Source: Xanthobacteraceae bacterium | GTDB lineage: Bacteria > Pseudomonadota > Alphaproteobacteria > Rhizobiales > Xanthobacteraceae | Length of the DNA: 48,542 nucleotides | Direction of reading: 5' to 3' | Assembly: GCA_045811545.1 (NCBI GenBank) | Contig: JBJMTU010000372.1 | Span: 1 to 48,542, forward strand | Shown here: piece by piece, positions 1 through 17,729 of the stretch | Position numbering within the stretch: the stretch's first letter is position 1 | Layout of the letters: every line of letters begins with the position of its first letter | Position numbers and translations under genes: made by a program | Notes under the pieces: model-generated | Databases searched by the model: none | Told to the model about the DNA's origin: nothing | The model's input: only the letters and a program-made list of their open reading frames with translations

Positions 1-273
1 GATGAATTCGCGTAGGTCGCAGTGCGGCCGGTCGTAGGCATTGAAGCTTTGGGCCTGCGGGCCTTGCGCCTTTTTCAGCACGGCGTTTCCTTTCGACAGG
101 TCTTTGGCAATGTTTTGCCATGGGGAGTGAGGCTTGTCATGCCCGCCCGCGCTAGCTGTCGCTACCCGTCCCGCGGCGTCGAATTCAATATTTTCGGCAC
201 CGCTTGGAGCGGCGTGCGCTGCATGGCTGGCGTAAACAGCCCGTATCTGGGCGACCGGTGCTGGCCTGCGCAA
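1..273 (-). CDS. possible 5' portion of a hypothetical protein gene continuing off the left edge
   Basis: Hand translation of the minus strand gives a stop-free frame from 399 down to base 1 (...NIEFDAAGRVATASAGGHDKPHSPWQNIAKDLSKGNAVLKKAQGPQAQSFNAYDRPHCDLREFI). The only in-frame start is TTG at 273-271. It is probably absent from the ORF track because it is open-ended. Third-position G+C is lower than in neighbouring genes and I recognise no family. Confidence 0.25.
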   Translation of the reverse strand, partial: MRRPAPVAQIRAVYASHAAHAAPSGAENIEFDAAGRVATASAGGHDKPHSPWQNIAKDLSKGNAVLKKAQGPQAQSFNAYDRPHCDLREFI

Positions 274-388
274 TGATTCCGTGTCCGTGCGAGCTCGTTC
301 GAAGGGAGTGCTTTTGACCCTGCTCGATCGCCCATGCGATAACGGCGAGGCATAATGCGCGTCTACGGCGTTGCAAGGAGCAGGTTTG

Positions 389-2083
389 ATGGCCGACGAT
401 CAGAAGCGCAGCCACACGCTCGCCGACCATCTGCTCGGCCAGGATGTCGTGCATGATCATGACGGCGACGCAGATCACGACCACGACCATTTCGAGTTCG
501 ATCCCGACGAGCGGCTGGAAGACAATCCGATCTGGATCCAGGACCATGTGACACTGGTGACGGTCGGCATCGACATCGGATCCTCCGGCACGCAAGTCAT
601 CTTCTCCCGCATCAATCTACGCCGCTACGGCGAGGATCTGACCAGCCGGTACTACGTCGTCTCGCGCGAGACCTTGTTCCAGTCGCCCGTGGCGCTGACC
701 CCGTACGCGAGCGACGAGCGCATCGACGATGCGGCGCTTGGCGCCATCATCGATGATGCGTATAAAGCGGCGGGCGTGCAGCCCGAGGACATCGATACCG
801 GCGTGGTCATCCTGACCGGTGAGGCGTTGCGCCGCGAGAACGCGGCGGCAATTGCCGCCCTGCTTGCGGAACAGCGCGGCGATTTCGTCGCCGCGGCGGC
901 GGGACACCACATGGAATCGATGCTCGCGGCCTATGGCTCAGGTGCGTCGAAGGTGTCGTATGAGGAGGATAAGCGCATCCTCAACATCGACATCGGCGGC
1001 GGCGCCACCAAACTCGGCATCGTCGAGAAGGGCAACGTGATCGCCACGGCGGCGCTGCATATCGGCGGCCGGCTGCAGGTCATGGAGGAGACCGGCCGGA
1101 TCGTGCGGCTCGATCCGGCGGGAAAATTCCACGCCCGCCAAGCCGGCTTTTCCTGGTCGCGCGGCGACGTGGTCTCGAGCGCGCAACTCGATAATGTCGC
1201 GACAAGCATGGCGGATTTGCTGGTGGCGGCGCTCGCGCAGCGTCCGCTGCCGCACGCGGTCCACCACCTCTATTTGACCGATCCGATCGGCGAGCTTGGC
1301 CGCATTGACGGCGTGATGTTTTCCGGCGGCGTCGGCGAATACGTCTACGGCCGCGAGCAGCGCGATTTCGGCGACATGGGACGCCGGCTTGGTCGCGCGA
1401 TCCGGGCGCGGATCGATGCCGGCGCGCTGCCGTGGCCGCTGCTGCCGCCGGGCGAGTGCATCCGCGCCACCGCGCTCGGGGCTTCGGAGTACAGCGTGCA
1501 GCTCAGCGGCAATACCAGCTACATCTCCAAGCCGGGCGAGCTTCTGCCGCGGCGCAATCTGCAGGTTCTGCAACCGCCCTACGTGTGCGAAGAGGCCATC
1601 GACGCGGATAAGCTCGCCCAGGCCATCCGCGCGCACTTCACCGCCTTCGATCTCATCGAAGGCGAGGGCGAAGTGGCGCTCGCGTTGCGCTGGCATGGTG
1701 CGCCGTCCTACGAGCGGATCCTCGCCTTCGCCGAAGGCGTCCGCCACGGGCTCGCTAGGACGATCGAACGCAGGAAGCCGCTCTACCTCATGCTCGACGG
1801 CGACGTGGCGCAAACACTGGGTGCGATCTTGCGCGAAGAGTTGCTGGTCGAGAGCGAGATCCTGGCAATCGATGGCTTGGTGCTGCGCGATTTCGACTAC
1901 ATTGATCTCGGACGCGTCCGCATGCCGTCATATACCGTGCCGGTCACGATCAAATCGCTACTGTTCAGCGAGGATCCGCGCCGCGGCCGCCCGCCCCAGC
2001 GCATTCATCACCACGAGCATCATCCCCATGATCACGGGCATGGCCACGATCAGGGGCATCACCATCATCACGACCATGATTAG
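389..2083 (+). CDS. EutA-family (ethanolamine ammonia-lyase reactivase-like, ASKHA-fold) protein with His/Asp-rich N- and C-terminal tails
   Basis: ORF 371..2083. The ATG at 389 follows AAGGAG (375-380). The translation is collinear with EutA as I recall it: VGIDIGSSGTQVIFSR, ILTGEA, NIDIGGGATK, FSGGVGEYVY, IRATALGASEYSVQLSG, and C-terminal YTVPVTIKSLLFS. Tails are HDHDGDADHDHDH near the N-terminus and HHHEHHPHDHGHGHDQGHHHHHDHD at the C-terminus. Confidence 0.85.
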   Translation: MADDQKRSHTLADHLLGQDVVHDHDGDADHDHDHFEFDPDERLEDNPIWIQDHVTLVTVGIDIGSSGTQVIFSRINLRRYGEDLTSRYYVVSRETLFQSPVALTPYASDERIDDAALGAIIDDAYKAAGVQPEDIDTGVVILTGEALRRENAAAIAALLAEQRGDFVAAAAGHHMESMLAAYGSGASKVSYEEDKRILNIDIGGGATKLGIVEKGNVIATAALHIGGRLQVMEETGRIVRLDPAGKFHARQAGFSWSRGDVVSSAQLDNVATSMADLLVAALAQRPLPHAVHHLYLTDPIGELGRIDGVMFSGGVGEYVYGREQRDFGDMGRRLGRAIRARIDAGALPWPLLPPGECIRATALGASEYSVQLSGNTSYISKPGELLPRRNLQVLQPPYVCEEAIDADKLAQAIRAHFTAFDLIEGEGEVALALRWHGAPSYERILAFAEGVRHGLARTIERRKPLYLMLDGDVAQTLGAILREELLVESEILAIDGLVLRDFDYIDLGRVRMPSYTVPVTIKSLLFSEDPRRGRPPQRIHHHEHHPHDHGHGHDQGHHHHHDHD

Positions 2084-2123
2084 CGTTGAGCTAGGTCTCG
2101 TGCGCTGCAGGCGCCACGGTCTC

Positions 2124-2300
2124 GGCGCGCCCCCTCTCCCCATTTGGGGAGAGGGTTGGGGTGAGGGGGTTACCGGTCGAGCTGAGAGACCAACACCCCT
2201 CACCCCACCCCTGTCCCACGCAAGTCGGGCTTGCCCGACTTGCGCGAAATTCAAGACGCGACCCGGGCAAGCCCGGGGCGCGTGGGAGAGGGAGCAGACC
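2124..2300. repeat. mosaic G/C-rich palindromic intergenic repeat, long copy
   Basis: Nested hairpins: CCCCTCTCCCC-ATTT-GGGGAGAGGG; GGGGTGAGGGG...CCCCTCACCCC; AAGTCGGGC-TT-GCCCGACTT; CCCGGGC-AA-GCCCGGG. It ends in GGGAGAGGGAGCAGACC. It shares GAGAGACC..ACCCCTCACCCCACCCCT and GGGAGAGGGAGCAGACC with the copy at 48441-48542. Confidence 0.8.
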
Positions 2301-2326
2301 GAGCCAGCCGCACCCGAGTCGCGCCC

Positions 2327-4063
2327 GTGACCGATGCGGTTGGGCGGCTCGCTCCTTTGCCGACCGTTGCGCCGCGGCTCGATGCGAGATGGGTGCTGAT
2401 CGGCGCTCCGGTGGTGCTGGTCGTTTGGCTCTCCCTCGTACCGCTCGTGTTTTTGCTTTGGCAAAGCTTTCTCACGCCGCAGACGGCGGGGCTACCCGCG
2501 CAATACACGCTCGAGAACTTTCGCATCGCTTACATGAGCAGCGACAATGCGCGCCTTTTCTTCAATTCCCTGCAATTCTCAATCGGCGCCGCCCTGCTCT
2601 CGCTCGTGGTCGGCACCGCGCTCGCGTGGATGAATGAACGCACCAATACGCCGTTCAAGACGCTGTTCTTCGCCCTGGCGATCATCCCATTGGTGATTCC
2701 AGGCATTCTCTTCACGGTCTCGTGGATTCTCCTGGCGAGCCCGAAAATCGGCCTGATCAATCTCGCCCTGCAGAAACTGTTCGACACCGATGCCGTGTTC
2801 GTCAACGCCTACACCATGGCGGGGATGATTTGGGTCGATGGGTTGCACTACTCGCCTGTGGCTTTTCTGCTGATGACGGCCGCGTTCCGTTCCATGGATC
2901 CCGCGCTCGAAGAGCAAGCCGCCATGAGCGGAGCTTCCGTGCCGCAGATCGCGCGCCGGGTCACGTTGCCACTGGCCTGGCCGGCGGCGCTCGGGGCGCT
3001 TCTGATCCTGTTCGTGCGTGCGATTGAATCGTTCGAGGTGCCGGCGCTGCTCGGGCTGCCCGTGGGCATCTACGTCTACACCTCCTCGATCTATCAGGCG
3101 ATCCACCAATATCCGAGCCAGATCGGGCTCGCCGCCGCCTATGCCGTGACGCTGCTGCTCATCACCTCGCTCGGCATCTATGCGCAGTCGCGGCTCTCGA
3201 GTCAGGGCGGACGATTTTCGACCGTCACCGGCAAGGGCTTTCGTCCGCGCACCATCGACCTGGGTCGTTGGCGCTATGTCACCGCGGCAATCTTCATCCT
3301 CTATTTCATCGTGATCGTGCTGCTGCCGTTCCTGGTGCTGGTTTGGTCCTCGCTACAGAAGTTCTACAGCGCGCCGTCCTGGGCGGCGCTCAGCCGCGTC
3401 AGCCTCGATTCCTACCGCGCGGTGCTCGATTATCCGCAATTCATGAACACGGTTTGGAACAGCGTCCTGCTTGCGCTCGGCAGCGCCACCACCGTCATGC
3501 TGGTGTCGGCGGTCATCGCCTGGATCGTCGTGCGCACCAAAGTGCCGGGACGCTGGATGCTCGACAATCTGGCGTCGCTGCCGCTGGTTTTTCCCGGCCT
3601 GGTGCTCGGGCTCGCGATCATGGTCTGCTATCTCTACATCGACATCGGCATCTACGGCACGCTCTGGATCATCTTCATCGCCTATGTGACGCGCTTCTTG
3701 CCGTACGGCATGCGCTACAGTTCGGCCTCGATGCTGCAGATCCACAAGGAGCTCGAGGAATCGGCCGCCATGAGCGGGGCCTCTTGGAGCATGACCTTTC
3801 GCCGCGTCGTCCTGCCGCTGTTGAAGCCGGGACTGCTCGCCGGCTTTATCTACGTGATGATCGTCTCCATCCGCGAGTTGTCGAGCTCGATCCTGCTCTA
3901 CTCGCCGGGCAGCGAGGTGGTCTCGATCATGATCTGGGAGCTGTGGCAGAATGGGCAGTATGTGGAGCTTTCCGCGCTCGGCGTCATGCTGATCCTCGCG
4001 CTGTTCCTGCTGGTTATGCTGGCCCAACTTGCCGGTCGGCGGTTCGGGATTGCTGAAACCTAA
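2327..4063 (+). CDS. ABC importer permease, fused two-domain type (FbpB/ThiP/PotBC-like)
   Basis: ORF 2231..4063 is highly hydrophobic throughout. It has two EAA-loop motifs (EEQAAMSGASVPQIARRVTLPLAWPA and EESAAMSGASWSMTFRRVVLPLLKPG). The start is uncertain: the track start (TTG 2231) lies inside the repeat. In-frame alternatives are GTG 2282, GTG 2327, TTG 2357 and GTG 2393, none with a clear SD sequence. Confidence 0.85.
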   Translation: MTDAVGRLAPLPTVAPRLDARWVLIGAPVVLVVWLSLVPLVFLLWQSFLTPQTAGLPAQYTLENFRIAYMSSDNARLFFNSLQFSIGAALLSLVVGTALAWMNERTNTPFKTLFFALAIIPLVIPGILFTVSWILLASPKIGLINLALQKLFDTDAVFVNAYTMAGMIWVDGLHYSPVAFLLMTAAFRSMDPALEEQAAMSGASVPQIARRVTLPLAWPAALGALLILFVRAIESFEVPALLGLPVGIYVYTSSIYQAIHQYPSQIGLAAAYAVTLLLITSLGIYAQSRLSSQGGRFSTVTGKGFRPRTIDLGRWRYVTAAIFILYFIVIVLLPFLVLVWSSLQKFYSAPSWAALSRVSLDSYRAVLDYPQFMNTVWNSVLLALGSATTVMLVSAVIAWIVVRTKVPGRWMLDNLASLPLVFPGLVLGLAIMVCYLYIDIGIYGTLWIIFIAYVTRFLPYGMRYSSASMLQIHKELEESAAMSGASWSMTFRRVVLPLLKPGLLAGFIYVMIVSIRELSSSILLYSPGSEVVSIMIWELWQNGQYVELSALGVMLILALFLLVMLAQLAGRRFGIAET

Positions 4064-4066
4064 AGA

Positions 4067-5179
4067 ATGCAAAGGCGAAAAGTGCTCGGCGTTAGATCGC
4101 TTTTCACCGAATATGCCAACGAGCGCGGCGGCGCGGTCAAGGCCGTGCAGGACGTCTCGTTCAAGGTGCCGGAGGGCAAGCTGTTCACGCTGCTCGGACC
4201 GTCGGGCTGCGGCAAGACCACGACGCTGCGCTCGATCGCCGGACTTGAGAAGCCGAGCGCGGGCGAGATCGAAGTCGGCGGTCGCCTCGTCTATTCGTCG
4301 GATAAGGGCATTTTCGTTGCGCCGAACAGGCGCAATTTCGGCATGGTGTTTCAGTCGTACGCCATCTGGCCGCACATGAACGTGTTTCAGAACGCGGCGT
4401 TCCCGCTCGAGGTGCGCAGGCTCGCCAAGAAGGATATCCGCGAGCGGGTCATGCGCGTGCTGCACGCGGTGGCGCTCGATGCGCTGGTTGATCGCGATGC
4501 CACCAAGCTTTCGGGCGGCCAGCAGCAGCGGCTCGCGCTCGCGCGCGCCTTGGTCATGGAGCCGCAGCTTCTGCTGCTCGATGAGCCGCTCTCCAATCTC
4601 GATGCCAAGCTGCGCGACCGCATGCGCACCGAGCTCAAGCGGCTGCAGCGCGATCTCGGTCTCACGACCGTTTACGTCACTCACGACCAGACCGAGGCGC
4701 TCGCGCTCTCGCACGAGATCGCGGTGATGAACGAAGGCCGAGTGATCCAGATCGGCACGCCGCGGCAGATTTACGAGCAGCCGAGCGACAAATTCGTCGC
4801 CGATTTTGTCGGGACCACCAACTTCATCGGCGGAACCGTGACCGCCATCCACGATGGCCGCTGTATCGTCAGCTCGGCGATGGGCGAACTCAACGCGCAT
4901 GCGAGCGAGGGCGTGGCCAAGAACGCGGCTGTCATCGTATCGGTACGACCGGAAGACGTGGAATTGTCGGAAGCGCCGCCGGCGGCCGCCGATGGCGACA
5001 ATGTCTGCAAGGGCATGATCGACGCCAAGGATTTCCTCGGCGACTACCTGGATTTTCACATCAGGGTCGGCGATGTTATCCTGTTGGCGAAAGCGCATCC
5101 ATCGCTGCGCACGCCGACCGGCGATTCGATCTATCTGCGCATGAAGGCGGACAAATGCGTCGCTATCAGCAGCCAGTAA
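4067..5179 (+). CDS. ABC transporter ATP-binding protein (PotA/FbpC/MalK-like, with C-terminal regulatory/TOBE-like extension)
   Basis: Walker A GPSGCGKTT, signature LSGGQQQRLALARAL, Walker B LLLLDEPLSNLD and H-loop YVTHDQ. It starts 3 nt after the permease stop. Confidence 0.92.
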   Translation: MQRRKVLGVRSLFTEYANERGGAVKAVQDVSFKVPEGKLFTLLGPSGCGKTTTLRSIAGLEKPSAGEIEVGGRLVYSSDKGIFVAPNRRNFGMVFQSYAIWPHMNVFQNAAFPLEVRRLAKKDIRERVMRVLHAVALDALVDRDATKLSGGQQQRLALARALVMEPQLLLLDEPLSNLDAKLRDRMRTELKRLQRDLGLTTVYVTHDQTEALALSHEIAVMNEGRVIQIGTPRQIYEQPSDKFVADFVGTTNFIGGTVTAIHDGRCIVSSAMGELNAHASEGVAKNAAVIVSVRPEDVELSEAPPAAADGDNVCKGMIDAKDFLGDYLDFHIRVGDVILLAKAHPSLRTPTGDSIYLRMKADKCVAISSQ

Positions 5180-5190
5180 TCAGGGCCGTC

Positions 5191-5310
5191 ATGGCCGGGT
5201 CGGGGCACCCTGCCGACTTTGTCGGCGGGGACCCCGTTGTCCCGGCCATCCGCGTCGGTGCGCTGCCATAAAGACGTGGATACCCGCGACGCGCGCGGGC
5301 ATGACGAGTG
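5191..5310. repeat. REP-like palindromic intergenic elements
   Basis: A long imperfect hairpin spans 5191-5249 (ATGGCCGGG..GCCGAC-TTT-GTCGGC..CCCGGCCAT). It is followed by AAGACGTGGATACCCGCG-ACGCG-CGCGGGCATGACG (stem 5283-5288/5294-5299). Confidence 0.55.
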
Positions 5311-5338
5311 AGAGTGCGATTAAGGGAAGGAGCAAGGC

Positions 5339-6466
5339 ATGGCCAAGGACGCCGTCGTCCCCGAAGAGCTGGCGAAGAAATTCTCCACCGAAAAGGATAC
5401 GCCCTACCTGCGCTGGGTGCGCGGCGAAGGTCTCGACATCATCAGTGCGCATTACGTGCGTAATCTGCGCACCGTGGAGCTAAAGCCCTGGGCACGGCGC
5501 GGCGGCCGCGGCGTCTACATCAATCATGAGGCGTCGCGCACCTCCAACGACTGCTACGTGTGCGAAATACCGCCCGGCAAGAAGCTCGAGCCGCAGCGGC
5601 AGTTGTTCGAGGAGATGATCCTGGTGCTCGACGGCCGCGGCTCGACCACCGTGTGGAACGACGAGGGCCGCCGCATCACGTTCGAGTGGAAAGCGGGCGC
5701 GATGTTCGCCATCCCGCTCAACTGCTGGCACCAGCACTTCAACGGCTCCGGCCAGACGCCGGCGCGTTACGTCGCCGTCACCAATGCGCCGCCCGTGATC
5801 AATCTCTACGAGGACGTCGAGTTCGTCTTCAGCACCAAGTACGACTTCAAGAACCGCTTCAACGGCGAGCCCGACTATTTCAGCGCCAAGGGCGAGCAGA
5901 AGGGTCTTCTGCTCGTCACCAACTTCGTAGCGGATGCGGTCAATCTGCCGCTGATTGCCGCCAAGGAGCGCGGCGCCGGCGGAGGCCATATCCGCTTCAA
6001 CATGGCCAAGGGCTCGATGAACAGCCACATCTCGCAGTTTCCGATCGGCACCTACAAGAAGGGCCACGCCCACGGCCCCGGCGCGCACGTGATCATCCTC
6101 TCGGGCGAGGGCTACTCGCTGATGTGGCCGGAGGGCGACGCGCCCAAGCGCTACGACTGGGAGGTCGGCACGCTGATCGTGCCGCCGAACATGTGGTTCC
6201 ACCAGCATTTCAACAGCGGGACCACGCCGGCGCGCTATCTCGCCTTCAAGCACGAGGGCGTCGCCATCCGCAACGTGCAGGGCGTGCCCAGGGCCTGGAT
6301 CAGCCGCCGCCTCGGCGGCGACCAGATCGATTATGCCGACGAGATGCCGAGCATCCGGAAGATGTTCACGGAGGAGCTGGTCAAACACGGGTTCAGCCCG
6401 CGCATGGATCAGGCCTACGCGCAGGAGCTCGCCGATCTGCCGCCGCCGGAGGCGAAGACGGGGTAA
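5339..6466 (+). CDS. bicupin protein (two cupin barrels, gentisate-dioxygenase-like architecture)
   Basis: RBS GGAAGGAG lies upstream of ATG 5339. Two cupin motif pairs are present. N-domain: G-KKLEP-QRQ-LFE-E...G plus G..F.IP...WHQHFN. C-domain: G-TYKKG-HAH-GPGAH...G.G plus G.LIVPPNMWFHQHFN. Confidence 0.8.
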   Translation: MAKDAVVPEELAKKFSTEKDTPYLRWVRGEGLDIISAHYVRNLRTVELKPWARRGGRGVYINHEASRTSNDCYVCEIPPGKKLEPQRQLFEEMILVLDGRGSTTVWNDEGRRITFEWKAGAMFAIPLNCWHQHFNGSGQTPARYVAVTNAPPVINLYEDVEFVFSTKYDFKNRFNGEPDYFSAKGEQKGLLLVTNFVADAVNLPLIAAKERGAGGGHIRFNMAKGSMNSHISQFPIGTYKKGHAHGPGAHVIILSGEGYSLMWPEGDAPKRYDWEVGTLIVPPNMWFHQHFNSGTTPARYLAFKHEGVAIRNVQGVPRAWISRRLGGDQIDYADEMPSIRKMFTEELVKHGFSPRMDQAYAQELADLPPPEAKTG

Positions 6467-6517
6467 ATCGTCCCCTCGGGTCTCGCGCCTGCCTCTTTCG
6501 TCCTAGGCCTGGTCACC

Positions 6518-8044
6518 TCAGCCTCGAATTGATGAAGGTGCCTTCATCGCACGCGTACAGCGCCCGCGGGCTCCCGTTCCCTTGAGTCCAGGTTGACGAA
6601 GACGAGCAAGACGTACCGCTTGGGTTACGACGCGAAGCGGTGCCGTTATCCGCCAGCTCGTGGATTTGAGCAGCGCATCTCTCTCGCGCTGCATGTCGTG
6701 GAGATTGGCAACTAGCTCCGCGATTGACGGATCATCCTCCCATTGAACAGGTCTGATCGTCGGTGAGTCCGCCGCTTTAGCGATCCAGGCCTCCATGAGT
6801 CGGTCCGCGTCGGCAGTCGGTACGAACGCGTCGATCGGGCTGGTGGCTGAGCGCGCCGCATCGAGCCGACGCTGCAGATAGTCGTGGAGCCAGCGGCCGT
6901 CGTTCAGCAACGTCGCGGGCACGAGGTAGCGCTCGAGTAGCCAAGCCAAAAACGCGTCAACGTTCGTAGACTTGCCGAGCCGACCAAAAAAATTCGCAAA
7001 TGTCGTTGCATCCGCAACATTGGATAACTCGGTTGAAGGCGGAGAGCCGAGGAGGCGGTTAAACAGCAATGCCTGATAGCCAATACTTGACGAGACACTC
7101 CAGACACCGTCAACCCGCGGCACCAGGAATTGCGATGACGACTGGTAGCGACGGAATTCGTCTAGAAAAATCATATTTGGAAACGTCCGGCGTAGCACAT
7201 CTATGTTTGAGTTTGGACCGGATCGCCTGAGAACGGGCTCACCGCTGGGATGCTCGGTGACGATAACCGCGATATGTTTCGGGGCGGCAACCAAGACATC
7301 ATACAAGTATTCGAATTGTGTACGGTAGCTTACCGGCCCATCGAAGGAAAATTCGTTCGAGATCTGCAGCGGAAGAAGACAAAGTCGATCAAAGCGACTG
7401 CCAAAGTCATTGGCTCGAAATGGATCAAGAGAGTTGAGGGCAGCTGCCATCTGCGAGCGAAATGCCGACACGAGGACGCGCGCATCTGACGTAACCGGAT
7501 ATGCGAGCTTCAGTCCTCCCACTTTCGCGACTGCTGACCGACTATAGGTGCCAAGATGATCGAAATAAAAACTGACGGGATACGGAGATCGCCCAAAATA
7601 ACCCCGCTCGATGTGCAGCCGCAGCGCGGTCGGCCACAATTTCGCGAGGCAATTGGCCTGGCCGGCAAAACCGATGATGATATCCGGTTCGAAGCCCCTG
7701 ACATTCCGCGCCACCATCTCTGCGATAGCGCCGAGCGCCGGCTGCGCTGTATCATCGGCTCGATGCGCCGTTTGATCCAACGCGGTGGGAAGTTCGCCGA
7801 GCTCTCTTATCCTTCGGTACAATAAGTGTTCGTCCAGCCAGACGGTGCGAAGCCCGGTCAAGAGATGGACCTTCCCGTTTTGCCCGGCCCAGTCGCTGAA
7901 CCAACCGCCCGTAATCAACATGCACTCGCATCTGGTTTCCCGGCGTAAGGGCTGAAGGAGTTCGGCAAGGGCCTCCACCCCGCCGTAGTTGAAGCCCGGC
8001 CCATTTGCCTGCACGAGCGGATTGACGAAGCAAGCCACCTTCAT
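6518..8044 (-). CDS. capsule polysaccharide biosynthesis-like protein (KpsS/KpsC 'Capsule_synth'-type), with C-terminal extension
   Basis: A 508-aa ORF in a distinctly lower-GC segment. The internal LLPLQISNEFSF resembles the (F)xPLQxxxDxQ hallmark of KpsS/KpsC-type beta-Kdo transferases as I recall it. The C-terminal ~90 aa contain LLKSTSWRITAPLR. The family assignment is from memory of motifs only. Confidence 0.6.
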   Translation of the reverse strand: MKVACFVNPLVQANGPGFNYGGVEALAELLQPLRRETRCECMLITGGWFSDWAGQNGKVHLLTGLRTVWLDEHLLYRRIRELGELPTALDQTAHRADDTAQPALGAIAEMVARNVRGFEPDIIIGFAGQANCLAKLWPTALRLHIERGYFGRSPYPVSFYFDHLGTYSRSAVAKVGGLKLAYPVTSDARVLVSAFRSQMAAALNSLDPFRANDFGSRFDRLCLLPLQISNEFSFDGPVSYRTQFEYLYDVLVAAPKHIAVIVTEHPSGEPVLRRSGPNSNIDVLRRTFPNMIFLDEFRRYQSSSQFLVPRVDGVWSVSSSIGYQALLFNRLLGSPPSTELSNVADATTFANFFGRLGKSTNVDAFLAWLLERYLVPATLLNDGRWLHDYLQRRLDAARSATSPIDAFVPTADADRLMEAWIAKAADSPTIRPVQWEDDPSIAELVANLHDMQRERDALLKSTSWRITAPLRVVTQAVRLARLRQPGLKGTGARGRCTRAMKAPSSIRG

Positions 8045-8266
8045 GGCACATGCCTATGCGTGAACTGCGGGGGAATTCAGTCGACGCTTCGCACGATTTT
8101 GAGCAATGCCGAGCAATATGCTCACAAACCTTACCGGAAGATGGCAAGCGAATTAAACTCGGCGTAACGAAAACGAAAACTCTGCGTAGTGAAAACGTAA
8201 ATGTCGAATCATCGGATCGAGATTGAATCTCCGGTCGCCAAGTTTGGCTTCGGACGAGGCGCCGCC

Positions 8267-8297
8267 GCATCCATCTATCTTGCGAAACGATGGATGC
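8267..8297 (-). terminator. hairpin downstream of mdtC (possible terminator)
   Basis: GCATCCATC (8267-8275) and GATGGATGC (8289-8297) form a 9-bp perfect stem with a 13-nt loop, 24 nt past the mdtC stop. There is no clear U-tract. Confidence 0.3.
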
Positions 8298-8320
8298 CGG
8301 GCCACGCATGACCGAGAGAC

Positions 8321-11300
8321 CTACGATCGTAGCACGCGGGCTGCCGTCTTGAGCAAATGGCCGGGCTCGTGATGCACGCGCGCACCCCACAGCCGCCGGT
8401 GCAGCTTGTCGAGCAAGAGATAGATCACGGGTGTCGTGTAAAGGGTGAGCACCTGCGAAACTAAAAGGCCGCCCACGATGGTGATGCCGAGCGGCCGGCG
8501 CAGTTCCGATCCCGGGCCGGTGGCGATCATCAGCGGCAGCGCGCCCATAAGCGCCGCCATGGTGGTCATCATGATCGGCCGGAACCGTTCGAGGCAGGCC
8601 TCGAAGATCGCCCGCTCCGGCGGCAGCGCCCGCTTGCGCTCCCCTTCGAGCGCGAAGTCGACCATCATGATTCCGTTCTTCTTGACGATGCCGATCAAGA
8701 GGATGATGCCGATGAAAGCAATCAGCGAAAGCTCGGTGCTGAAGATCTGCAAGGCCAAGAGCGCACCGAGGCCCGCCGACGGCAGGGTGGAAATGATCGT
8801 CAGCGGATGCGCCAGGCTCTCATACAAGACGCCGAGCACGATATAGACGGCGATGAGCGCCGCCACGATCAACAGCGGCTGTGCGCCGATTGAAGCCCGA
8901 TAGGCGCGCGCATCGCCGGCATATTCGGCGTGCAGCGCGTCAGGAATGTGCAGCTCGGCGACTGCCTGGTCGATAAGCCGCGTCGCCTGCTCGATGGTGA
9001 CGTTTTCGCGCAGGCCGAAACTGATGGTGATCGCGGGGAACTGTCCCTGGTGGTTGACCACCAGCGGTGAAAGCCCGCGCTCGATCTTGGTCACCGCCGT
9101 GAGCGGAACCTGGGTATTGTTGGCGCCGCTCACATAAATGCGGGCGAGGTCGTTCGGATCGCGCTGATATTGCGGATCGATCTCCAGCACCACGCGATAC
9201 TGGTTGCGCTGGGTGTAGAGGGTGGAGATCTGGCGCTGCGAGTAGGCGTTGTTGAGCGCGTTGGCGATGTCCTGCACGCGCACGCCGAGCCGCGCCGCCG
9301 CGGTGCGGTCGATCGATACGTTCACCTGCAGCCCGCCCTGTTCGCGGTCGATCGAGACGTCGACCAGCTCCGGCAGGCTCTGGATTTTTTCGAACACGCG
9401 CGGCGCCCACGCCAGCAGCTCTTGGTAATCGGCGTCCCAGAGCGTGTACTGGTAGGCGGCATCGCTCTGGCGACCGCCGGCCCGCACGTCCTGCATGGGG
9501 AAGAAGTAGAGGCGTAGCCCGGGAATATCGGCGGTTTTCTGCCGCAAGCGGTTGGCTACTGCCTGCGCTGACAGCCCCCCGCGCTCCGCCAGCGGCTTGA
9601 GTGCGATGAACAGCGAGCCGCGATTGACCGAAGCAGTAAAGCCGAGCGAGCCGAGGGAAGACCCGACATTGGCGACGGCGGGATCGGCGCGCACCAGCGC
9701 CTCCGCCTTCTGTTGCAGGTCGTACATGGCCTGGAACGAAATCTCGGTCGAGGCCTGGGTGCTGCACCAGATCAGGCCGGTATCATCCTGCGGGAAATAG
9801 CCTTTGGGCGTCCTGACATAGAGCATGATCGTGATCGCCAGTGTCGCGGTCACGATCAGCAGCATGAGCCCCTGGTGATGCAGCACGGCCGCGAGGCTCT
9901 TCGCGTAGCCGCGCACCATCAAGCTCATGACCCGCTCGACCGCGCGATCGAGCCAGGTCGCATCGGGGCTCGGCGGCTTGCGCACGAAGTGCGCGCAGAT
10001 CATCGGCGTCACTGTGAGCGATACCGCGGTCGAAACCGCGATCGCGAAGGCGAGCGTCACCGAAAATTCCCGGAAGATGCGGCCGACCAGCCCGGTCATG
10101 AACAGCAGCGGGATGAAGGCGGCGACCAGCGAGATGCTGATGGAAAGCACGGTGAATCCGATCTGCCGCGCGCCTTCGATGGCGGCGCGGAACGGGGACA
10201 TGCCCTTTTCCAGATTGCGGAAGCAGTTCTCGATCATGACGATGGCATCATCGACCACGAAACCGACCGACACCGCGAGCGCCATCAGCGACAGGTTGTC
10301 GATGGAAAAGCCGGCGAGCCACATCATCGCGCAGGTGCCGGCGAGCGACAGCGGCACCGTGACGCCGGCGGCGACCGTGGTCGCGGCGCGCCGCAGGAAG
10401 ACGAACACCACCAGCATGACCAGAATGACGGTAGCGATCAGCGTGAGCTGCATGTCGAACACGCTCGCGCGAATGGTGCTGGTGCGGTCGGACATCACCG
10501 TGATGTCGATGCCTGGCGAGATCCAGCGCTTGATCTCGGGCAAGAGCTGGTAGATGCGGTCGACGGTTTCGATCACATTGGCGGTCGACTGCTTGTTGAT
10601 GACCAAGAGGACCGAAGGCTGACCGTTGAACCAGGCCGCGGTGCGGCTGTTGCGCACGCCGGATTCGATCGAGGCGACCGCCGAAAGCCGCACCACCGTT
10701 CCATTGGCATTGCGCACGACGATAGGATCGTAGTCGGGCGCAGCGCGCAGCTGATCATTGGTGGCGATGCTGATCGCGCGTTCGCCGCCGTCGAACATTC
10801 CGACCGGGCCGATCCCGTTGCTGTTGGCGATCGCGGTGCGCACGTCCTCCATGTTCAATCCCATCGAGGCGAGCGCGATCGGGTCGACGCGCACGCGGAT
10901 CGCGGGTTGCTCGGCGCCGTTGACGCTGACCTCGGCGACGCCGTCGACCTGGGAGAGGCGCTGGGCGATCACGGTATCGGCGGCGTCGTAGAGCGCGCTC
11001 GGGGGAGCGGTGTTCGAGGTGAGCGCCAGGATCATGATCGGCGTCGCTGCCGGATTGACCTTCCGGAATGTCGGCCGCGACGGCAGGTCGCCGGGCAGAT
11101 CGCTGAGCGCCGCGTTGATCGCTGCCTGCACGTCGCGCGCGGCGCCATCGATGTTGCGGGCGAGATCGAACTGGACCGTGATCCGCGTCGAGCCCATGGA
11201 GCTGCGGGAGGTGAGCTCGGTCACGCCCGCGATTTCCGCGAGTCGACGCTCGAGCGGCGCCGCCACGGTCGCTGCCATGGTTTCGGGATCGGCCCCCGGC

Positions 11301-11461
11301 CGACTGGCCGTGACGGCGATGGTCGGAAAGTCGACTGTCGGCATGCTGGCGACGGGCAGGAAGCGGTAGGCCACCGCCCCTACCAGAAGCAGACCGATCG
11401 CGAGCAGCGTGGTGCCGACCGGCCGCCGGATAAACGCTTCGGAAAAGCTCGTGCCGTTCAT
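8321..11461 (-). CDS. mdtC: RND multidrug efflux permease, MdtC-like
   Basis: ORF 8321..11515. The preferred start is ATG 11461, giving MNGTSFSEAFIRRPVGTTLLAIGLLL, the canonical RND N-terminus. It shows a 12-TM RND pattern, FVVDDAIVMIEN, and conserved C-terminal LLLIGIVKKNGIMMVDFA. It is the second RND gene after the MFP gene, as in mdtABC. Confidence 0.92.
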   Translation of the reverse strand: MNGTSFSEAFIRRPVGTTLLAIGLLLVGAVAYRFLPVASMPTVDFPTIAVTASRPGADPETMAATVAAPLERRLAEIAGVTELTSRSSMGSTRITVQFDLARNIDGAARDVQAAINAALSDLPGDLPSRPTFRKVNPAATPIMILALTSNTAPPSALYDAADTVIAQRLSQVDGVAEVSVNGAEQPAIRVRVDPIALASMGLNMEDVRTAIANSNGIGPVGMFDGGERAISIATNDQLRAAPDYDPIVVRNANGTVVRLSAVASIESGVRNSRTAAWFNGQPSVLLVINKQSTANVIETVDRIYQLLPEIKRWISPGIDITVMSDRTSTIRASVFDMQLTLIATVILVMLVVFVFLRRAATTVAAGVTVPLSLAGTCAMMWLAGFSIDNLSLMALAVSVGFVVDDAIVMIENCFRNLEKGMSPFRAAIEGARQIGFTVLSISISLVAAFIPLLFMTGLVGRIFREFSVTLAFAIAVSTAVSLTVTPMICAHFVRKPPSPDATWLDRAVERVMSLMVRGYAKSLAAVLHHQGLMLLIVTATLAITIMLYVRTPKGYFPQDDTGLIWCSTQASTEISFQAMYDLQQKAEALVRADPAVANVGSSLGSLGFTASVNRGSLFIALKPLAERGGLSAQAVANRLRQKTADIPGLRLYFFPMQDVRAGGRQSDAAYQYTLWDADYQELLAWAPRVFEKIQSLPELVDVSIDREQGGLQVNVSIDRTAAARLGVRVQDIANALNNAYSQRQISTLYTQRNQYRVVLEIDPQYQRDPNDLARIYVSGANNTQVPLTAVTKIERGLSPLVVNHQGQFPAITISFGLRENVTIEQATRLIDQAVAELHIPDALHAEYAGDARAYRASIGAQPLLIVAALIAVYIVLGVLYESLAHPLTIISTLPSAGLGALLALQIFSTELSLIAFIGIILLIGIVKKNGIMMVDFALEGERKRALPPERAIFEACLERFRPIMMTTMAALMGALPLMIATGPGSELRRPLGITIVGGLLVSQVLTLYTTPVIYLLLDKLHRRLWGARVHHEPGHLLKTAARVLRS

Positions 11462-11547
11462 GGCCTCAGTCCGGCTCCCTGCGCGTATCCCGGATGCGGT
11501 GCGGCGCGAAGCCACAAGTCGGCAATGTGGCGGCTACGCTCATGGCG

Positions 11548-14500
11548 TCACTCCGCCGGGTGCTGTGACGGCTCGGGCTGATCCGGCAAGTCGAGCTCCG
11601 GCTGCAGCGGCGCCGGCCGGCTCAGCCGCGTCTTCACGCGCTCCATCGCGAGATAGACGACCGGCGTGGTGTAGAGCGTGAGCAGTTGGCTCAGAAGCAG
11701 CCCGCCGATAATGGTGATGCCGAGCGGGTTGCGCAGCTCCGAGCCGGTGCCCGATTCGAATGCGAGCGGAATGGCGCCAAACAAGGCCGCCAAGGTGGTC
11801 ATCATGATCGGACGAAACCGCAACAGGGAAGCCTGGACGATCGACTCCCGCGGCGATAGCCCCTGCTTGCGCTCGGCTTCGAGCGCGAAGTCGATCATCA
11901 TGATCGCGTTCTTCTTCACGATGCCCATCAGCAGCACGATGCCGATCAGCGCCACCACCGAGAGGTCCTGCTTGTAGAGCATCAGCGCGAGCAGGGCGCC
12001 GACGCCGGCCGACGGCAGCGTCGAGAGGATGGTGAGCGGATGGATGAAGCTTTCGTAGAGCACCCCGAGCACGATGTAGATGGTCACCGCGGCCGCGAGG
12101 ATCAGCCAGGGTTCGCCGGCAAGCGATTTCGCAAATTCGGCGGCATCGCCGGAATAGCTGCCGATCACCGAGCTCGGCATCCCGATCTCGCGCTCGGCGT
12201 GCGAAATCGCCTCCACCGCGTCGCTGAGTGCGGCCTCGGGAGCAAGATTGAAGCTGATCGTCGTTGCCGGAAACTGCTCCTGATGGGCAATCACCAGCGG
12301 CGCGGTCGTGTGCTCGAAGCGGGCAACCGCGCTCAGCGGCACCATGGGGCTGCCGGAGACCGTTGGAATGACGGTCGGCGATGTCGAGGTCAATGACGTG
12401 GATTGGGCCACCGCCTGGACGCCCGAAGCGGGAACATAGAGCTTTGACAAGGACGAGGGATCGTTCTGGTACTCGGGCTTCGCTTCGAGGATCACGCGGT
12501 ACTGGTTGGCCTGCCCGTAGATAGTCGAGATCTGCCGCTGCCCGAACGCGTCGCTCAACGTGTCGATAATGGTCTGCATGGAGACGCCGAGGCGTCCCGC
12601 GGTCTCGCGATCCACGTCGACCTGCAATCGGAAGCCGTCATTCTGCGCCTCCGAGGCGACGTCTTGGAGCACCGGCGACGATCGCAGCTTTTGCGCAAGT
12701 CGCGCCACCCACTCGTCGACCTCTTTCGCGTCGGTGCCGGTGAGCGTGTATTGATACTGCGCGCGGCTCAGCCGCGTCGAAATCTGGATGTCCTGCACCG
12801 GCCGAAAATAGACCACGACGCCGGGAACCGCGGTGACCGACCGCTGCAGCCGTTCGATGACCGTGGTCACCGGTGTTTCGCGCTCGTCGCGCGAGCGCAG
12901 CGTGATGGCGAGCCGCCCGGCATTCGGCGTGGCGTTGATCGGCGTCACCCCGATGACGGACACGACGCCAGTCACGTCGGGATCCTTGCGGATCGCGCCC
13001 TCGACGGTTGCCTGCAGCCGCTTCATCTCGGTGAACGAGATCTCCTGCCCGCCTTCCATGACCGCGAAGATGAGGCCCGTGTCCAGCAGCGGCAGGAACC
13101 CCTTGGGAATGATGATGTAGAGCCAAATCGTCGCAATGAGCGTGGCGCCGGTCACGATGAGCGTCAGCGTCTCGTGGCGCAGCACCCAGTCCAGGCTGCG
13201 CCGGTAGAGCTCGACCGAGCCATCGACCGCGCGGTGAAATATCCGCGTGATGCCGGTGCTCGGGGAGTCCGTTCCCTTATGCCGCAGTAGCCGGCTGCAC
13301 ATCATCGGCGTCAACGTCAGCGAAACCACCGCCGAGGTCACGACGGCGATGGTCAGCGTCAGCGCGAATTCGCGGAACATGCGGCCGACCAGGCCGGTCA
13401 TGAACAGTAGGGGGATGAACACCGCGATCAGCGAGAACGTGAGCGAAATGATCGTGAACCCGATCTCGCTCGCGCCGCGCAGCGCGGCCTGGAACGGGCC
13501 CTCGCCGTTCTCCATGTGGCGCACGATGTTCTCGATCATGACGATCGCATCGTCGACAACGAAGCCGGTGCCGATGGTCAGCGCCATGAGCGACAGATTG
13601 TCGAGCGAAAACCCGCAGAACCACATGACGCCGAAGGTGGCGATGATCGACAGCGGCAGCGCGACGCCGGCGATGATGGTGGCGCGGACGGTGCGCAGGA
13701 AAATGAGCACGACGGTGATTACCAGCGCCACGCTCAGGATCAGCGTGAATTGCACGTCGCGCACCGATGCGCGGATGCTGGCGGTGGCGTCGTGCACGAT
13801 CGTGAGCGTCGCGCCGATCGGCATCGCGCGCTGCAGCTTCGGCAGCTCGTTCTTGATGCGCTGCACCGTCTCGATCACGTTGGCGCCGGGCTGGCGCTGG
13901 ATATCGACCACGATAGCCGGCATGCCCTGGTAGAAGCCGGCGACCTTGGTGTTCTCGAGGCCGTCGACGACGTCGGCCACATCCTGGAGCCGGACCGGCG
14001 CGCCGTTGCGGTACGTGACGATGATGTTGCGATAGGCTGCGGCCACGGTGATTTGGTCGTTGGCGGCAATGGTGTAGGACTGATGCGCGCCGTCGAGCGA
14101 GCCTTTCGGACCGGCGACGTTGGCCGCGAGAATCACGTTGCGCAGGTCCTCGAGGGCGATGCCGTAATTGGCAAGACGGGAGAGATCAGCCTGAACGCGG
14201 ATCGCCGGCCGGATGTTGCCCTGCACCGTCACGCGGCCCACGCCGGTCAGCTCGCTCAGCCGCTGTGCGAGCAGGGTGTCGGCGATGTCGCTGAGCGCGC
14301 GCAGCGAAATCGTGTCCGAGGTGATCGCCAGCGTCACCATCGGCGCATCGGCGGGATTGACTTTGGAATAAACCGGCGGGTACGGCAGGTTTCTCGGCAG
14401 CGTCGATCCGGACGCATTGATCGCAGCCTGCACGTCCTGCGCGGCGGCGTCGATGTCGCGGTTGAGTTCGAACTGCAACGTGATCTGGCTCACCCCGAAC

Positions 14501-14754
14501 GAGCTCGATGACGTCATCAGCTGGAGCGCGGGAATCTGCCCGAAATTTCGCTCGAGCGGTGCCGTCACCAGCGATGCCATCACGTCGGGGCTTGCGCCGG
14601 GAAGCTGCGTCGTCACCTGGATGGTGGGAAAATCGACCTGCGGCAGCGACGAGACCGGTAACCACAGATAGCCGAGCAGGCCGCCGAGCATGACCGCGAC
14701 CCCGAGCAGAGAGGTTGCGATCGGGCGGTGGATGAACGGCGACGACACGCTCAT
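11548..14754 (-). CDS. mdtB: RND multidrug efflux permease, MdtB-like
   Basis: MSVSSPFIHRPIATSLLGVAVML..., then LPQVDFPTIQVTTQLPGASPDVM..VTAPLER, PPVYSKVNPADAPM, KGSLDG and GFVVDDAIVMIENI. The translation is collinear with E. coli MdtB as recalled. Its ATG overlaps the mdtA stop (ATGA at 14751-14754). Confidence 0.93.
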   Translation of the reverse strand: MSVSSPFIHRPIATSLLGVAVMLGGLLGYLWLPVSSLPQVDFPTIQVTTQLPGASPDVMASLVTAPLERNFGQIPALQLMTSSSSFGVSQITLQFELNRDIDAAAQDVQAAINASGSTLPRNLPYPPVYSKVNPADAPMVTLAITSDTISLRALSDIADTLLAQRLSELTGVGRVTVQGNIRPAIRVQADLSRLANYGIALEDLRNVILAANVAGPKGSLDGAHQSYTIAANDQITVAAAYRNIIVTYRNGAPVRLQDVADVVDGLENTKVAGFYQGMPAIVVDIQRQPGANVIETVQRIKNELPKLQRAMPIGATLTIVHDATASIRASVRDVQFTLILSVALVITVVLIFLRTVRATIIAGVALPLSIIATFGVMWFCGFSLDNLSLMALTIGTGFVVDDAIVMIENIVRHMENGEGPFQAALRGASEIGFTIISLTFSLIAVFIPLLFMTGLVGRMFREFALTLTIAVVTSAVVSLTLTPMMCSRLLRHKGTDSPSTGITRIFHRAVDGSVELYRRSLDWVLRHETLTLIVTGATLIATIWLYIIIPKGFLPLLDTGLIFAVMEGGQEISFTEMKRLQATVEGAIRKDPDVTGVVSVIGVTPINATPNAGRLAITLRSRDERETPVTTVIERLQRSVTAVPGVVVYFRPVQDIQISTRLSRAQYQYTLTGTDAKEVDEWVARLAQKLRSSPVLQDVASEAQNDGFRLQVDVDRETAGRLGVSMQTIIDTLSDAFGQRQISTIYGQANQYRVILEAKPEYQNDPSSLSKLYVPASGVQAVAQSTSLTSTSPTVIPTVSGSPMVPLSAVARFEHTTAPLVIAHQEQFPATTISFNLAPEAALSDAVEAISHAEREIGMPSSVIGSYSGDAAEFAKSLAGEPWLILAAAVTIYIVLGVLYESFIHPLTILSTLPSAGVGALLALMLYKQDLSVVALIGIVLLMGIVKKNAIMMIDFALEAERKQGLSPRESIVQASLLRFRPIMMTTLAALFGAIPLAFESGTGSELRNPLGITIIGGLLLSQLLTLYTTPVVYLAMERVKTRLSRPAPLQPELDLPDQPEPSQHPAE

Positions 14755-16022
14755 GGGTTGGCTGTGCGCGGCAGATCCGCGCTTGAGCTACGCCTTCCTT
14801 TCTCCGCTCCGCGCGTGCCGCGCGTTCCGTCCGGGCGAGGCCGCGCCTCGGGCGCGATCTGGCCCGCGTCTTCCGCGTCCGATACGACTACCCGCGTGCC
14901 CTCCGTGAGACGGGAAAAGCCGGTCGTGACCACGCGCTCGCCCGCCTGCAATCCGTTGGCGACCACAGCGCCCACATCGTCCTGCTGCGTCAGCGTCACG
15001 CGCCGCACGGTGACGGTATCTCCCTCCCTGAGCACGTAGGCGAACGGTCCGTTGGGACCGCGCTGGACGGCGGCAGTCGGTACCACCACCACCTGCCGCA
15101 ACGTGTCGATCAGCACCCGAACGTTGACGAACTGGCCCGGCCAGAGCTGAAGGTTCGCATTGGGAAATTCCGCCTTGAGTTTCACTGTCCCGGTGGTTTG
15201 GTCGACCTGGTTGTCGATCACCATCACCTTGCCCTTGTCGAGCGCGCTCTTGCCATCGGCGGTCAAGGCGTCGACGGGAAGCTTGCCTTCGGCCATGCCT
15301 CTGGTGAGAGCAGGGAGATTCTGCTGCGCCAGGCTGAAGAAGACCGAGATTGGCCGCAGCTGCGTGAGGATGACGATGCCGTTCGCTTCCGCCCCGCGCA
15401 CGAGATTGCCCACATCGACGAGACGAATGCCGGTGCGGCCGGCGATCGGCGCGACGATGTCGGTATAGGACAGGATGGCGCGCGCGTTGTCGATCGTGGC
15501 TTGGTCGAGTTTGATCTGCGCCTCGAGTTGGGCGACCAGCGCCCTCTGGGTATCGAGTTGCTGCTTGTTGACCGCGTTGGTCGCCGCAAGACGCGTGTAG
15601 CGGTCCAGGTCGAGCCTCGCGTTAGCGAGCTGCGCTTCGTCCTGTGCTTTCTTGGCGACGGTCTGGTCGTAGGCGGCCTGGTAAGTGACGGGATCGATCT
15701 TGGCGAGGACGTATCCCTTCGGCACGTCCTGCCCTTCCGTGAAATATATATCGACGATTCTGCCGTCGACCTGGGAGCGAACGGTCACGGTGTTGAGCGC
15801 TTTGGCGGTGCCCACCCCGTCGAGATAGACCGGCACATCGGCCACGCGCGCGGCAGCGACGAGAACGGGAATGGGATCGCTCGCGGGCGGCCCGCCGCGG
15901 CGACCGCCCTTCGAAACCGCCGCCAGCGTCTGCTGCCAGTGCGGCATGTAATAGACACCGACGACCGCCGCGATGACTGCGGCAGCGATCATGAGCACGG
16001 TGATGCGCCGTTTGAGCGTCAT
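14751..16022 (-). CDS. mdtA: RND efflux periplasmic adaptor (membrane fusion protein), MdtA-like
   Basis: It has an N-terminal membrane anchor (MTLKRRITVLMIAAAVIAAVVGVYY), a coiled-coil hairpin region (QLANARLDLDRYTRL...QLDTQRALVAQLEAQIKLDQATIDNA) and a beta-barrel region. Four-nt overlaps occur with both the upstream OMF gene and downstream mdtB. Confidence 0.92.
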   Translation of the reverse strand: MTLKRRITVLMIAAAVIAAVVGVYYMPHWQQTLAAVSKGGRRGGPPASDPIPVLVAAARVADVPVYLDGVGTAKALNTVTVRSQVDGRIVDIYFTEGQDVPKGYVLAKIDPVTYQAAYDQTVAKKAQDEAQLANARLDLDRYTRLAATNAVNKQQLDTQRALVAQLEAQIKLDQATIDNARAILSYTDIVAPIAGRTGIRLVDVGNLVRGAEANGIVILTQLRPISVFFSLAQQNLPALTRGMAEGKLPVDALTADGKSALDKGKVMVIDNQVDQTTGTVKLKAEFPNANLQLWPGQFVNVRVLIDTLRQVVVVPTAAVQRGPNGPFAYVLREGDTVTVRRVTLTQQDDVGAVVANGLQAGERVVTTGFSRLTEGTRVVVSDAEDAGQIAPEARPRPDGTRGTRGAEKGRRSSSADLPRTANP

Positions 16023-17464: not shown

Positions 17465-17729
17465 GGAGCCGACTTTCAACGCTACGGCCGCCCGTGAAAA
17501 CGGGGCATTAGCGTTAACGCAACGCACGCCTTCCCCAACCGCCTGCTGGCCAACGGACCATACTATCAGCCCTTCCCGGGCCGCCTACTTAATAAAAAGA
17601 CATGTTCGGCTTGGGGCAGCGCTGAAGACCTCCCCCTGGGCACGGTTTGCGGCTTTCAACTGGCTGATTTAAAACAGGTATTTACAACGCGGTCGGTTCG
17701 TTGCCACTCACTTTCGGGCCAAATGGAGG

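Follow-up and report, generated by a model that had tools for sequence, protein, structure and literature searches.

What does a protein of the EutA family do in a genome region without ethanolamine ammonia-lyase? EutA is known as an ATP-dependent reactivase that exchanges damaged cobalamin in ethanolamine ammonia-lyase. Here, we analysed a stretch of 48,542 nucleotides from a Xanthobacteraceae bacterium (contig JBJMTU010000372.1, assembly GCA_045811545.1; this whole stretch is called the window), in which a gene for an EutA-like protein is followed by the fused permease and the ATPase of an ATP-binding cassette (ABC) importer and by a bicupin. In our best reading, the EutA-like protein and the bicupin are a conserved two-gene functional unit. 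All four open reading frames (ORFs) were verified in series on the + strand, as described in the initial annotation, including the spacing between permease and ATPase: the ATPase gene starts 3 nt past the permease stop codon. The genes, and the sites within them to which we refer below, are:

389–2083, + strand: EutA-family ASKHA ATPase of 564 amino acids (aa; Pfam PF06277)
413–490, + strand: His/Asp N-terminal motif of the EutA-like protein (orthologue alignment)
2003–2080, + strand: low-complexity, His-rich C-terminal tail of the EutA-like protein, IHHHEHHPHDHGHGHDQGHHHHHDHD (translation)
2327–4063, + strand: fused two-domain type-I ABC importer permease, 578 aa from a GTG start (two BPD_transp_1 stretches)
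4067–5179, + strand: ABC transporter ATPase with a C-terminal TOBE_2 domain (Pfam ABC_tran and TOBE_2)
5339–6466, + strand: bicupin of 375 aa (Pfam Cupin_2, AlphaFold model, Foldseek)
6065–6208, + strand: putative 3-His metal site in the C-terminal cupin barrel (residues invariant across two paralogous bicupin groups)

To compare this locus with others, we used close relatives, as no exact match to the window protein was found in public assemblies. A genome scan with one genome per species gave 80 loci of 60–97% identity, and a metagenome scan gave a second set of 80; each set comprises the best 80 of more than 560 matches, and most of these loci come from metagenome-assembled genomes. Overall, about 165 related loci with flanks of 8–10 kb were compared, in which genes were called crudely as the longest ORF combined with a filter on GC content at third codon positions. 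The 80 loci of the genome scan belong to Alphaproteobacteria (Xanthobacteraceae, Beijerinckiaceae, Phyllobacterium, Terripilifer, Paracoccaceae and Rhodospirillales), Betaproteobacteria (Polaromonas, Herminiimonas, Noviherbaspirillum, Sterolibacterium and others), Gammaproteobacteria and Acidobacteria, and the gene order of the window recurs in relatives from Alphaproteobacteria, Betaproteobacteria and Acidobacteria at 62–97% identity. Together, the genome-scan loci and the group-1 metagenome loci contain 62 orthologous loci whose downstream flank is 6.5 kb or longer. A bicupin orthologue (at least 70% identity) was found in 44 of these loci, and in 22 of the 62 it lies at most 600 bp downstream with no ABC genes between. 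The permease is present in 24 loci and a binding protein in 18; permease, ATPase and bicupin occur together in 13. Based on these counts, we consider the EutA-like/bicupin pair as the core and the transporter as a frequent accessory. The clustering is far beyond chance. A neighbourhood survey across genera had been proposed as a check in the initial annotation, which suggested that all four genes may form a distinct module. The survey effectively refutes a fortuitous adjacency; however, the conserved set is the pair and not the four genes, since the ABC genes occur in only 24 of 62 loci and, beside one paralogous pair, a TTT transporter takes their place.

The pairing is also found for paralogues. 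Many loci contain a second operon, in which a bicupin with 32–35% identity to that of the window (bicupin′) is followed by a 506-aa EutA-like paralogue (EutA2) and a prolyl aminopeptidase that passes its NCBIfam model (TIGR01249; 361 bits, cut-off 260). Examples, with L numbers denoting individual loci, are:

L004, 2512–4988, − strand: EutA2 paralogous operon in the order bicupin′, EutA2, prolyl aminopeptidase
L053, 4133–5389, and L078, 8478–9716, − strand: partner bicupin′ genes (further examples in L037, L046 and L051)

The N-terminus of bicupin′ is invariant, MPHD(K/G)D..HWHEP. It is pure speculation that N-terminal processing of Met-Pro-His exposes a histidine, which would be reminiscent of NiSOD and SodX.

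A third lineage was detected in a metagenome scan that was seeded with family members 41–45% identical to the window protein: in about 27 metagenome loci, such a distant EutA-like gene adjoins a bicupin of 34–43% identity. Thus, EutA-like/bicupin pairing is seen in three paralogous lineages in all, and a bicupin is present in the locus for 95 of the 123 EutA-family genes with adequate flanks. When comparing adjacent partners, the pairwise identities of EutA-like proteins and bicupins are correlated (r=0.93, 61 pairs), a value that is inflated by shared phylogeny. Even so, the comparison shows that the members of a pair diverged together, as units. The bicupin is the more conserved partner, with 72–96% identity where the EutA-like protein has 60–97%. 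An independent test is provided by plasmids, with the same outcome. Among the 72,556 plasmids in PLSDB, four (three from Sinorhizobium and one from Phyllobacterium) carry a non-canonical EutA, and these four are the only records with bicupin homologues; the EutA-like gene and the bicupin gene are each present twice in every one of them. The 22 records with a canonical EutA (Klebsiella, E. coli, Clostridioides, Listeria and others) contain no bicupin homologue.

The EutA-like protein itself is clearly a member of the EutA family. It matches Pfam EutA (PF06277) over its full length (E=2e-115, residues 56–526) and is 34% identical to E. coli EutA (b2451) from end to end. The ASKHA phosphate and adenosine motifs (DxGxx, DxGGGT and SGGV) are intact and invariant with E. 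coli EutA, and public databases (PGAP, JGI) name these proteins EutA. With the four NCBIfam EutA equivalog models, it reaches at most 316 bits (NF007992, cut-off 598; the cut-offs range from 598 to 952), so that the scores are about half of the cut-offs. Searches (tblastn) with E. coli EutB and EutC gave no match in the window or in the related loci (80 from genomes, 80 from metagenomes and others), and a Pfam scan of the larger ORFs of the window detected no B12 enzyme. This agrees with the initial annotation, which had noted that eutB, eutC and other B12 enzymes are missing from the window and had argued against an ethanolamine-utilisation system. According to that annotation, a eutBC operon immediately to the left would have refuted its reading; we found a divergent UbiD gene there instead. 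In two relatives that reach 10 kb further to the left (90% and 97% identity), this side contains the divergent UbiD gene, a class II aldolase, two monocupins and a thiamine-pyrophosphate (TPP) enzyme. In addition, Rfam detected no cobalamin or NiCo riboswitch within positions 1–8500. Judged by its gene content, the EutA-like/bicupin locus has nothing to do with ethanolamine or B12. The suggestion that the EutA-like protein services a different client, possibly the bicupin, fits the finding that the bicupin is its evolutionarily conserved partner; that it does so as a chaperone is our inference.

The fold of the EutA-like protein is ASKHA/actin-like and not that of the G3E/SIMIBI GTPases (HypB, UreG, CooC, COG0523). 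Secondary profile matches are to ATPases that act on proteins (MreB, FtsA, DnaK and BcrAD-type) and not to sugar kinases. Sequence and profile searches of the PDB found no solved EutA and only remote ASKHA matches, and no natural EutA–cupin fusion was found among the unusually long family representatives. Two regions distinguish the protein from E. coli EutA. It begins with a 55-residue extension containing eight histidines, HTLADH...HDHDGDADHDHDH, which is missing from E. coli EutA. Among 33 orthologues of 67–97% identity, the residues H9, D13, H14, G17, H22, H24 and D29-H30-D31-H32-D33-H34 of this motif are invariant, and the His/Asp motif is kept in every group-1 orthologue, across classes. 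More generally, 47 of 108 full-length family representatives (50% clusters) have at least four histidines ahead of the first ASKHA motif. At the other end, the C-terminal tail of the window protein holds 15 histidines, and E. coli EutA is again without such a tail. All group-1 orthologues have a His-rich C-terminal tail of variable length, with up to 34 histidines.

For the bicupin, Pfam detects a single Cupin_2 domain in the 375 residues. The AlphaFold (AF2) model (predicted template modelling score 0.71) contains two barrels at approximately residues 30–150 and 230–305. The top Foldseek matches of this model are all bicupins with at most 16% identity: oxalate decarboxylase, vicilins, MncA and gentisate dioxygenase. 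Sequence scores for characterised enzymes are low (15.9 bits with the gentisate 1,2-dioxygenase model TIGR02272, cut-off 442; 32 bits with the 5-aminosalicylate dioxygenase model, cut-off 650), and PDB profile matches have E values of 8.5e-4 or weaker. With the C-terminal cupin, PDB sequence searches gave weak matches to cupin-type phosphoglucose isomerase. In an alignment across the two paralogous bicupin groups, which are only 32–35% identical, H243, H245, H288 and H290 are invariant and the canonical cupin Glu of the C-terminal barrel is replaced by Ala; the same alignment contains no conserved His in the N-terminal barrel. The C-terminal barrel thus contains a putative metal site of the 3-His type, made up of H243, H245 and H288 with H290 as a further residue, and the N-terminal barrel is degenerate.

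The surroundings of the pair look like a catabolic island whose substrates are probably aromatic or other carboxylic acids. Recurrent neighbours include a LigXa-like Rieske oxygenase with a Fer2-FAD-NAD reductase, proteins of three decarboxylase-type families (PhtD-like, class II aldolase-like and UbiD/UbiX), a TPP enzyme, a HIBADH-like reductase, two 200-aa monocupins and CoxS/CoxL-type proteins. The recurrent regulator is of the IclR type, not Fur or Zur. The NCBIfam names for the Rieske, TPP, aldolase-like and binding proteins are all below threshold, and no substrate was assigned. A link to metals is visible at some loci: a gene for a Ni/Co transporter of the NicO/HoxN type (NiCoT) is present in 17 of the approximately 165 loci, and nikR in two. 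For instance, a Phyllobacterium zundukense plasmid (L168) has the order class II aldolase, cupin, EutA, HoxN/NixA transporter, nikR, binding protein. This locus corresponds to NZ_CP104971, 437572–456978, and the same cultured strain contains a second cupin–EutA pair (L170). Two transporters, a TTT transporter and a YjbE-type metal transporter, accompany this second pair, along with a TPP enzyme, an NAD(P) oxidoreductase and a class II aldolase. P. zundukense is a good experimental system for such pairs. A further arrangement was observed in one Xanthobacteraceae clade (L014, L017, L020, L022, L025, L028, L030 and L045), where same-strand genes precede the EutA-like gene and encode a DUF2126 protein, a circularly permuted ATP-grasp/alpha-E protein and a transglutaminase-like protein; DUF2390-UbiX-CMD-UbiD follow downstream of the pair. 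This arrangement may reflect lineage-specific synteny or a functional link.

What, then, is the role of the importer? The longest ORF of the permease starts with TTG at 2231; relatives call a 578-aa product, which corresponds to the GTG start at 2327 in the window. Its best NCBIfam match is PhnU2 (140 bits, cut-off 593), and the ATPase has PhnT2/PotA-like matches under the cut-offs. All three importer components score far under the equivalog cut-offs. The binding proteins of relatives are of the SBP_bac_1/6/8 types. Such a gene follows directly after the bicupin in L011 and L012 (78–79% identical relatives) and is missing at that place from the window, L001 and L009; no homologue of it exists anywhere in the 48.5-kb window. 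The initial annotation of an importer without a binding-protein gene therefore holds for the window, but 18 of the 62 relatives have such a gene in the cluster. Given L011 and L012, the lack is a local state and not a design feature. We also considered a 241-aa SBP_bac_11 protein upstream in L002 as the missing component; it is unrelated to the binding proteins of the cluster and apparently has no signal peptide. In some loci, up to three binding-protein paralogues are interleaved with oxygenase genes, and beside the second P. zundukense pair the TTT transporter stands in place of the ABC system. On both observations, the transporters are interchangeable and most likely import an organic substrate. 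The fused-permease importer is an optional add-on that most likely takes up the organic substrate of the pathway. Metal import by this importer, as suggested earlier, is the weaker idea: the visible metal links run through the separate NiCoT transporter and NikR. In four loci (L065, L078, L043 and L069), the EutA-like gene, the ABC ATPase and the bicupin occur in this order and tblastn did not detect a permease between them; either the ATPase gene may be maintained in the absence of the fused permease, or the permease was missed by the tblastn filter.

How might the two proteins of the pair work together? By analogy with EutA, the EutA-like protein may be an ATP-dependent maturation or reactivation factor for the 3-His metal centre of the bicupin within the catabolic island, a proposal to which we give almost as much credence as doubt. 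The bicupin would be a mononuclear metalloenzyme with the 3-His site in its C-terminal barrel and would probably carry out an oxygenase- or lyase-type step in the catabolism of aromatic or carboxylic acids. The EutA-like ASKHA ATPase would be its dedicated accessory factor: it would bind the apo- or inactivated bicupin, and ATP binding and hydrolysis would open the metal site. Metal held on the His/Asp N-terminal motif and the His-rich tail would then be loaded into the bicupin or exchanged there. Nickel would be the leading metal candidate, with Fe(II) as the alternative. We infer all of the physical interaction, the identity of the metal, the direction of transfer and the reaction of the bicupin. 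In a more far-reaching version, which seems doubtful to us, the EutA-like clade would represent a so far unrecognised class of ASKHA-fold, ATP-dependent metal insertases or reactivases, and the 3-His site of the partner bicupins would be the place at which nickel (or Fe) is loaded or exchanged by them.

Several observations weigh against the proposal of a maturation factor. The known Ni and Zn metallochaperones are GTPases and not ASKHA proteins, and as many ASKHA proteins are kinases, a catalytic role is possible. The EutA2 paralogues pair with a bicupin and yet have no His-rich termini; metal storage is thus not universal to the pairing. Linkage to NiCoT is seen in only about 10% of the loci, and in neither the window nor its closest relatives. 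The correlation of partner identities partly reflects common descent. Finally, the AlphaFold model of the EutA-like protein is poor (predicted local distance difference test score of 57), and a fold search with this model gave generic ASKHA matches only.

The most serious competing explanation takes up the kinase argument. The EutA-like protein could be a catalytic ATP-dependent enzyme, such as a kinase or the ATP-using component of a carboxylase or isomerase, which acts on the same small molecule as the bicupin, as part of a two-component enzyme or in consecutive steps. Kinases are common in the superfamily and the protein has intact ATPase motifs, the pair is located amid catabolic genes (Rieske oxygenase and reductase, PhtD-like, class II aldolase-like, UbiD/UbiX, TPP enzyme and transporters), the C-terminal cupin weakly resembles cupin-type phosphoglucose isomerase, and tight co-inheritance would be expected for the subunits of an enzyme just as for a chaperone with its client. 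However, the profile matches point to MreB, FtsA, DnaK and BcrAD-type proteins rather than to sugar kinases, and a kinase role leaves the His/Asp motif, the His-rich tail and the NiCoT/NikR neighbours unexplained. Furthermore, the only characterised member of PF06277 is, to our knowledge, a protein-directed reactivase. We thus regard a catalytic role as unlikely, though far from negligible. The His-rich tails with up to 34 histidines would also be expected if the locus served metal acquisition and storage, with the importer taking up Fe(III) or Ni, the EutA-like protein buffering or storing it and the bicupin being one consumer among several. The fused permease, the TOBE-domain ATPase and the SBP_bac_6/8-type binding protein indeed resemble iron importers of the Fbp type. 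This explanation is improbable in light of the neighbourhoods: the ABC genes are missing from most EutA-like/bicupin loci and are replaced by a TTT carboxylate-type transporter beside one paralogous pair, the binding-protein paralogues (at most three per locus) amid oxygenase genes look like uptake of organic substrates, the metal uptake that is encoded is a separate NiCoT gene, and the cluster is accompanied by an IclR regulator rather than by Fur or Zur.

There are two further explanations. A genuine EutA that reactivates ethanolamine ammonia-lyase or another adenosylcobalamin enzyme encoded elsewhere in the genome would account for the full-length PF06277 match, the 34% identity to E. coli EutA and the database name. 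Yet there is no EutB or EutC within 8–10 kb at any of the related loci, the equivalog scores are about half the cut-offs, the His-rich extensions are missing from E. coli EutA and the bicupin pairing is conserved over three paralogous lineages, which makes this explanation very improbable. Lastly, the genes could be fortuitously adjacent and functionally unrelated. The long intergenic gaps in the window, 243 bp between the EutA-like gene and the permease and 159 bp before the bicupin, are the sole observation in favour, whereas the pair is conserved across phyla and paralogous lineages and the co-occurrence in PLSDB is exact; we therefore give this last explanation practically no weight.

The window contains further features around the pair, two of which lie directly beside the EutA-like gene:

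1–273, − strand: 5′ part of a UbiD-family decarboxylase gene that runs off the left window edge (tblastn)
2084–2326, no strand: GC-rich palindrome stack, REP/MITE-like (RNA fold, recurring motif)

In tblastn, the UbiD fragment matches the UbiD genes of L008 and L002 at their N-terminus with 92% identity, and L002 has a complete UbiD gene (Pfam UbiD_N/UbiD/UbiD_C) in the corresponding place. The gap between the EutA-like gene and the permease is filled with stacked palindromes, CCCTCTCCCCATTTGGGGAGAGGG and GGGGTGAGGGG...CCCCTCACCCC, plus a long hairpin; its RNA fold has an energy of −155 kcal/mol (z=−7.7). The motif CCCCTCACCCC is found again at 48447–48511, at the right end of the window, and Rfam gave only sub-threshold hairpin matches for the repeat. 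At the same junction, L004 has only 13 bp, compared to 243 bp in the window. The stack looks like an intergenic repeat element similar to repetitive extragenic palindromes or miniature inverted-repeat transposable elements (REP/MITE). A scan for promoters and terminators performed no better than on shuffled sequences. Neither this repeat nor the partial UbiD gene nor the His-rich termini of the EutA-like protein had been recorded in the initial annotation. To the right of the bicupin, a 508-aa ORF (6518–8044, − strand) has no Pfam match and coincides with a local dip in GC content (0.598). It occupies the position where the 78%-identical relatives have the binding-protein gene, to which it is unrelated, and may be an insertion or a replacement. 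Immediately downstream (8321–17527, − strand), there is a resistance–nodulation–division (RND) efflux system. It comprises a membrane-fusion protein, an outer-membrane factor and two AcrB-type pumps, the second of which is inferred from its homologue in L001. In L001 and L009, the bicupin is directly followed by the same RND efflux genes.

If the more far-reaching version of the proposal is true, the bicupin would be the first client of the reactivase family that does not depend on B12, and the EutA-like protein would be the first NTP-dependent metallochaperone for a mononuclear cupin that is not a GTPase. The reactivase concept would then extend beyond cobalamin enzymes. How mononuclear cupins acquire the correct metal is an open problem, since their sites bind many metals; in the case of MncA, the place of folding reportedly can influence metallation. 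An ATP-driven partner dedicated to this task would be a new solution. Thousands of database entries named EutA would be mis-named, and as both PGAP and JGI use this name for these proteins, a systematic annotation error would be corrected. The pair would further mark a large catabolic island that is widespread in soil and freshwater. Cultured carriers include Phyllobacterium zundukense, Terripilifer ovatus, Noviherbaspirillum humi and several Sinorhizobium megaplasmids, which makes the idea directly testable.

Our literature searches gave no reports of EutA-family proteins that lie outside eut operons, of metallochaperones with an ASKHA fold or of accessory ATPases of cupins. Neither EutA nor ASKHA nor cupin clients are mentioned in the searchable part of a 2024 review on metal trafficking in bacteria. 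The name EutA in the ectoine and tardigrade literature refers to a different thing. When comparing the locus to known systems, the importer is similar to the Fbp, PhnS2T2U2 and ThiBPQ importers in its fused permease, its TOBE-domain ATPase and the SBP_bac_1/6/8 binding protein of relatives; however, the components are far under the equivalog cut-offs and the window has no binding-protein gene. The bicupin shares the two-barrel fold, weak sequence and fold matches and a 3-His set in one barrel with the bicupins of the gentisate dioxygenase (3bu7) and oxalate decarboxylase type. It differs from solved bicupins in its low identity (at most 16%), the C-terminal position of the putative metal site and the degenerate N-terminal barrel, and, in contrast to the gentisate and oxalate types, it depends on an ATPase partner or is at least always accompanied by one. 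With HypB, UreE/UreG, SlyD, CooJ and COG0523, the EutA-like protein has in common the His-rich tracts and the occasional NiCoT/NikR linkage, and the coupling of an NTPase to a client is proposed here; those proteins, however, are GTPases or non-enzymatic scaffolds, whereas the EutA-like protein has the ASKHA fold. The closest comparison remains EutA itself. The EutA-like loci differ in that no relative has eutBC, a microcompartment gene or a B12 gene nearby, and the protein adds the N-terminal motif and the His-rich C-terminal tail, stays below the equivalog cut-offs and has a bicupin as its partner. It is similar to EutA in the full-length PF06277 match, the 34% identity and the ASKHA ATP-binding motifs, and also in the proposed logic of an ATPase that would service the metal cofactor site of a partner enzyme. 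We thus rate the EutA-like protein as a reactivase-family ATPase with a new, non-B12 partner.

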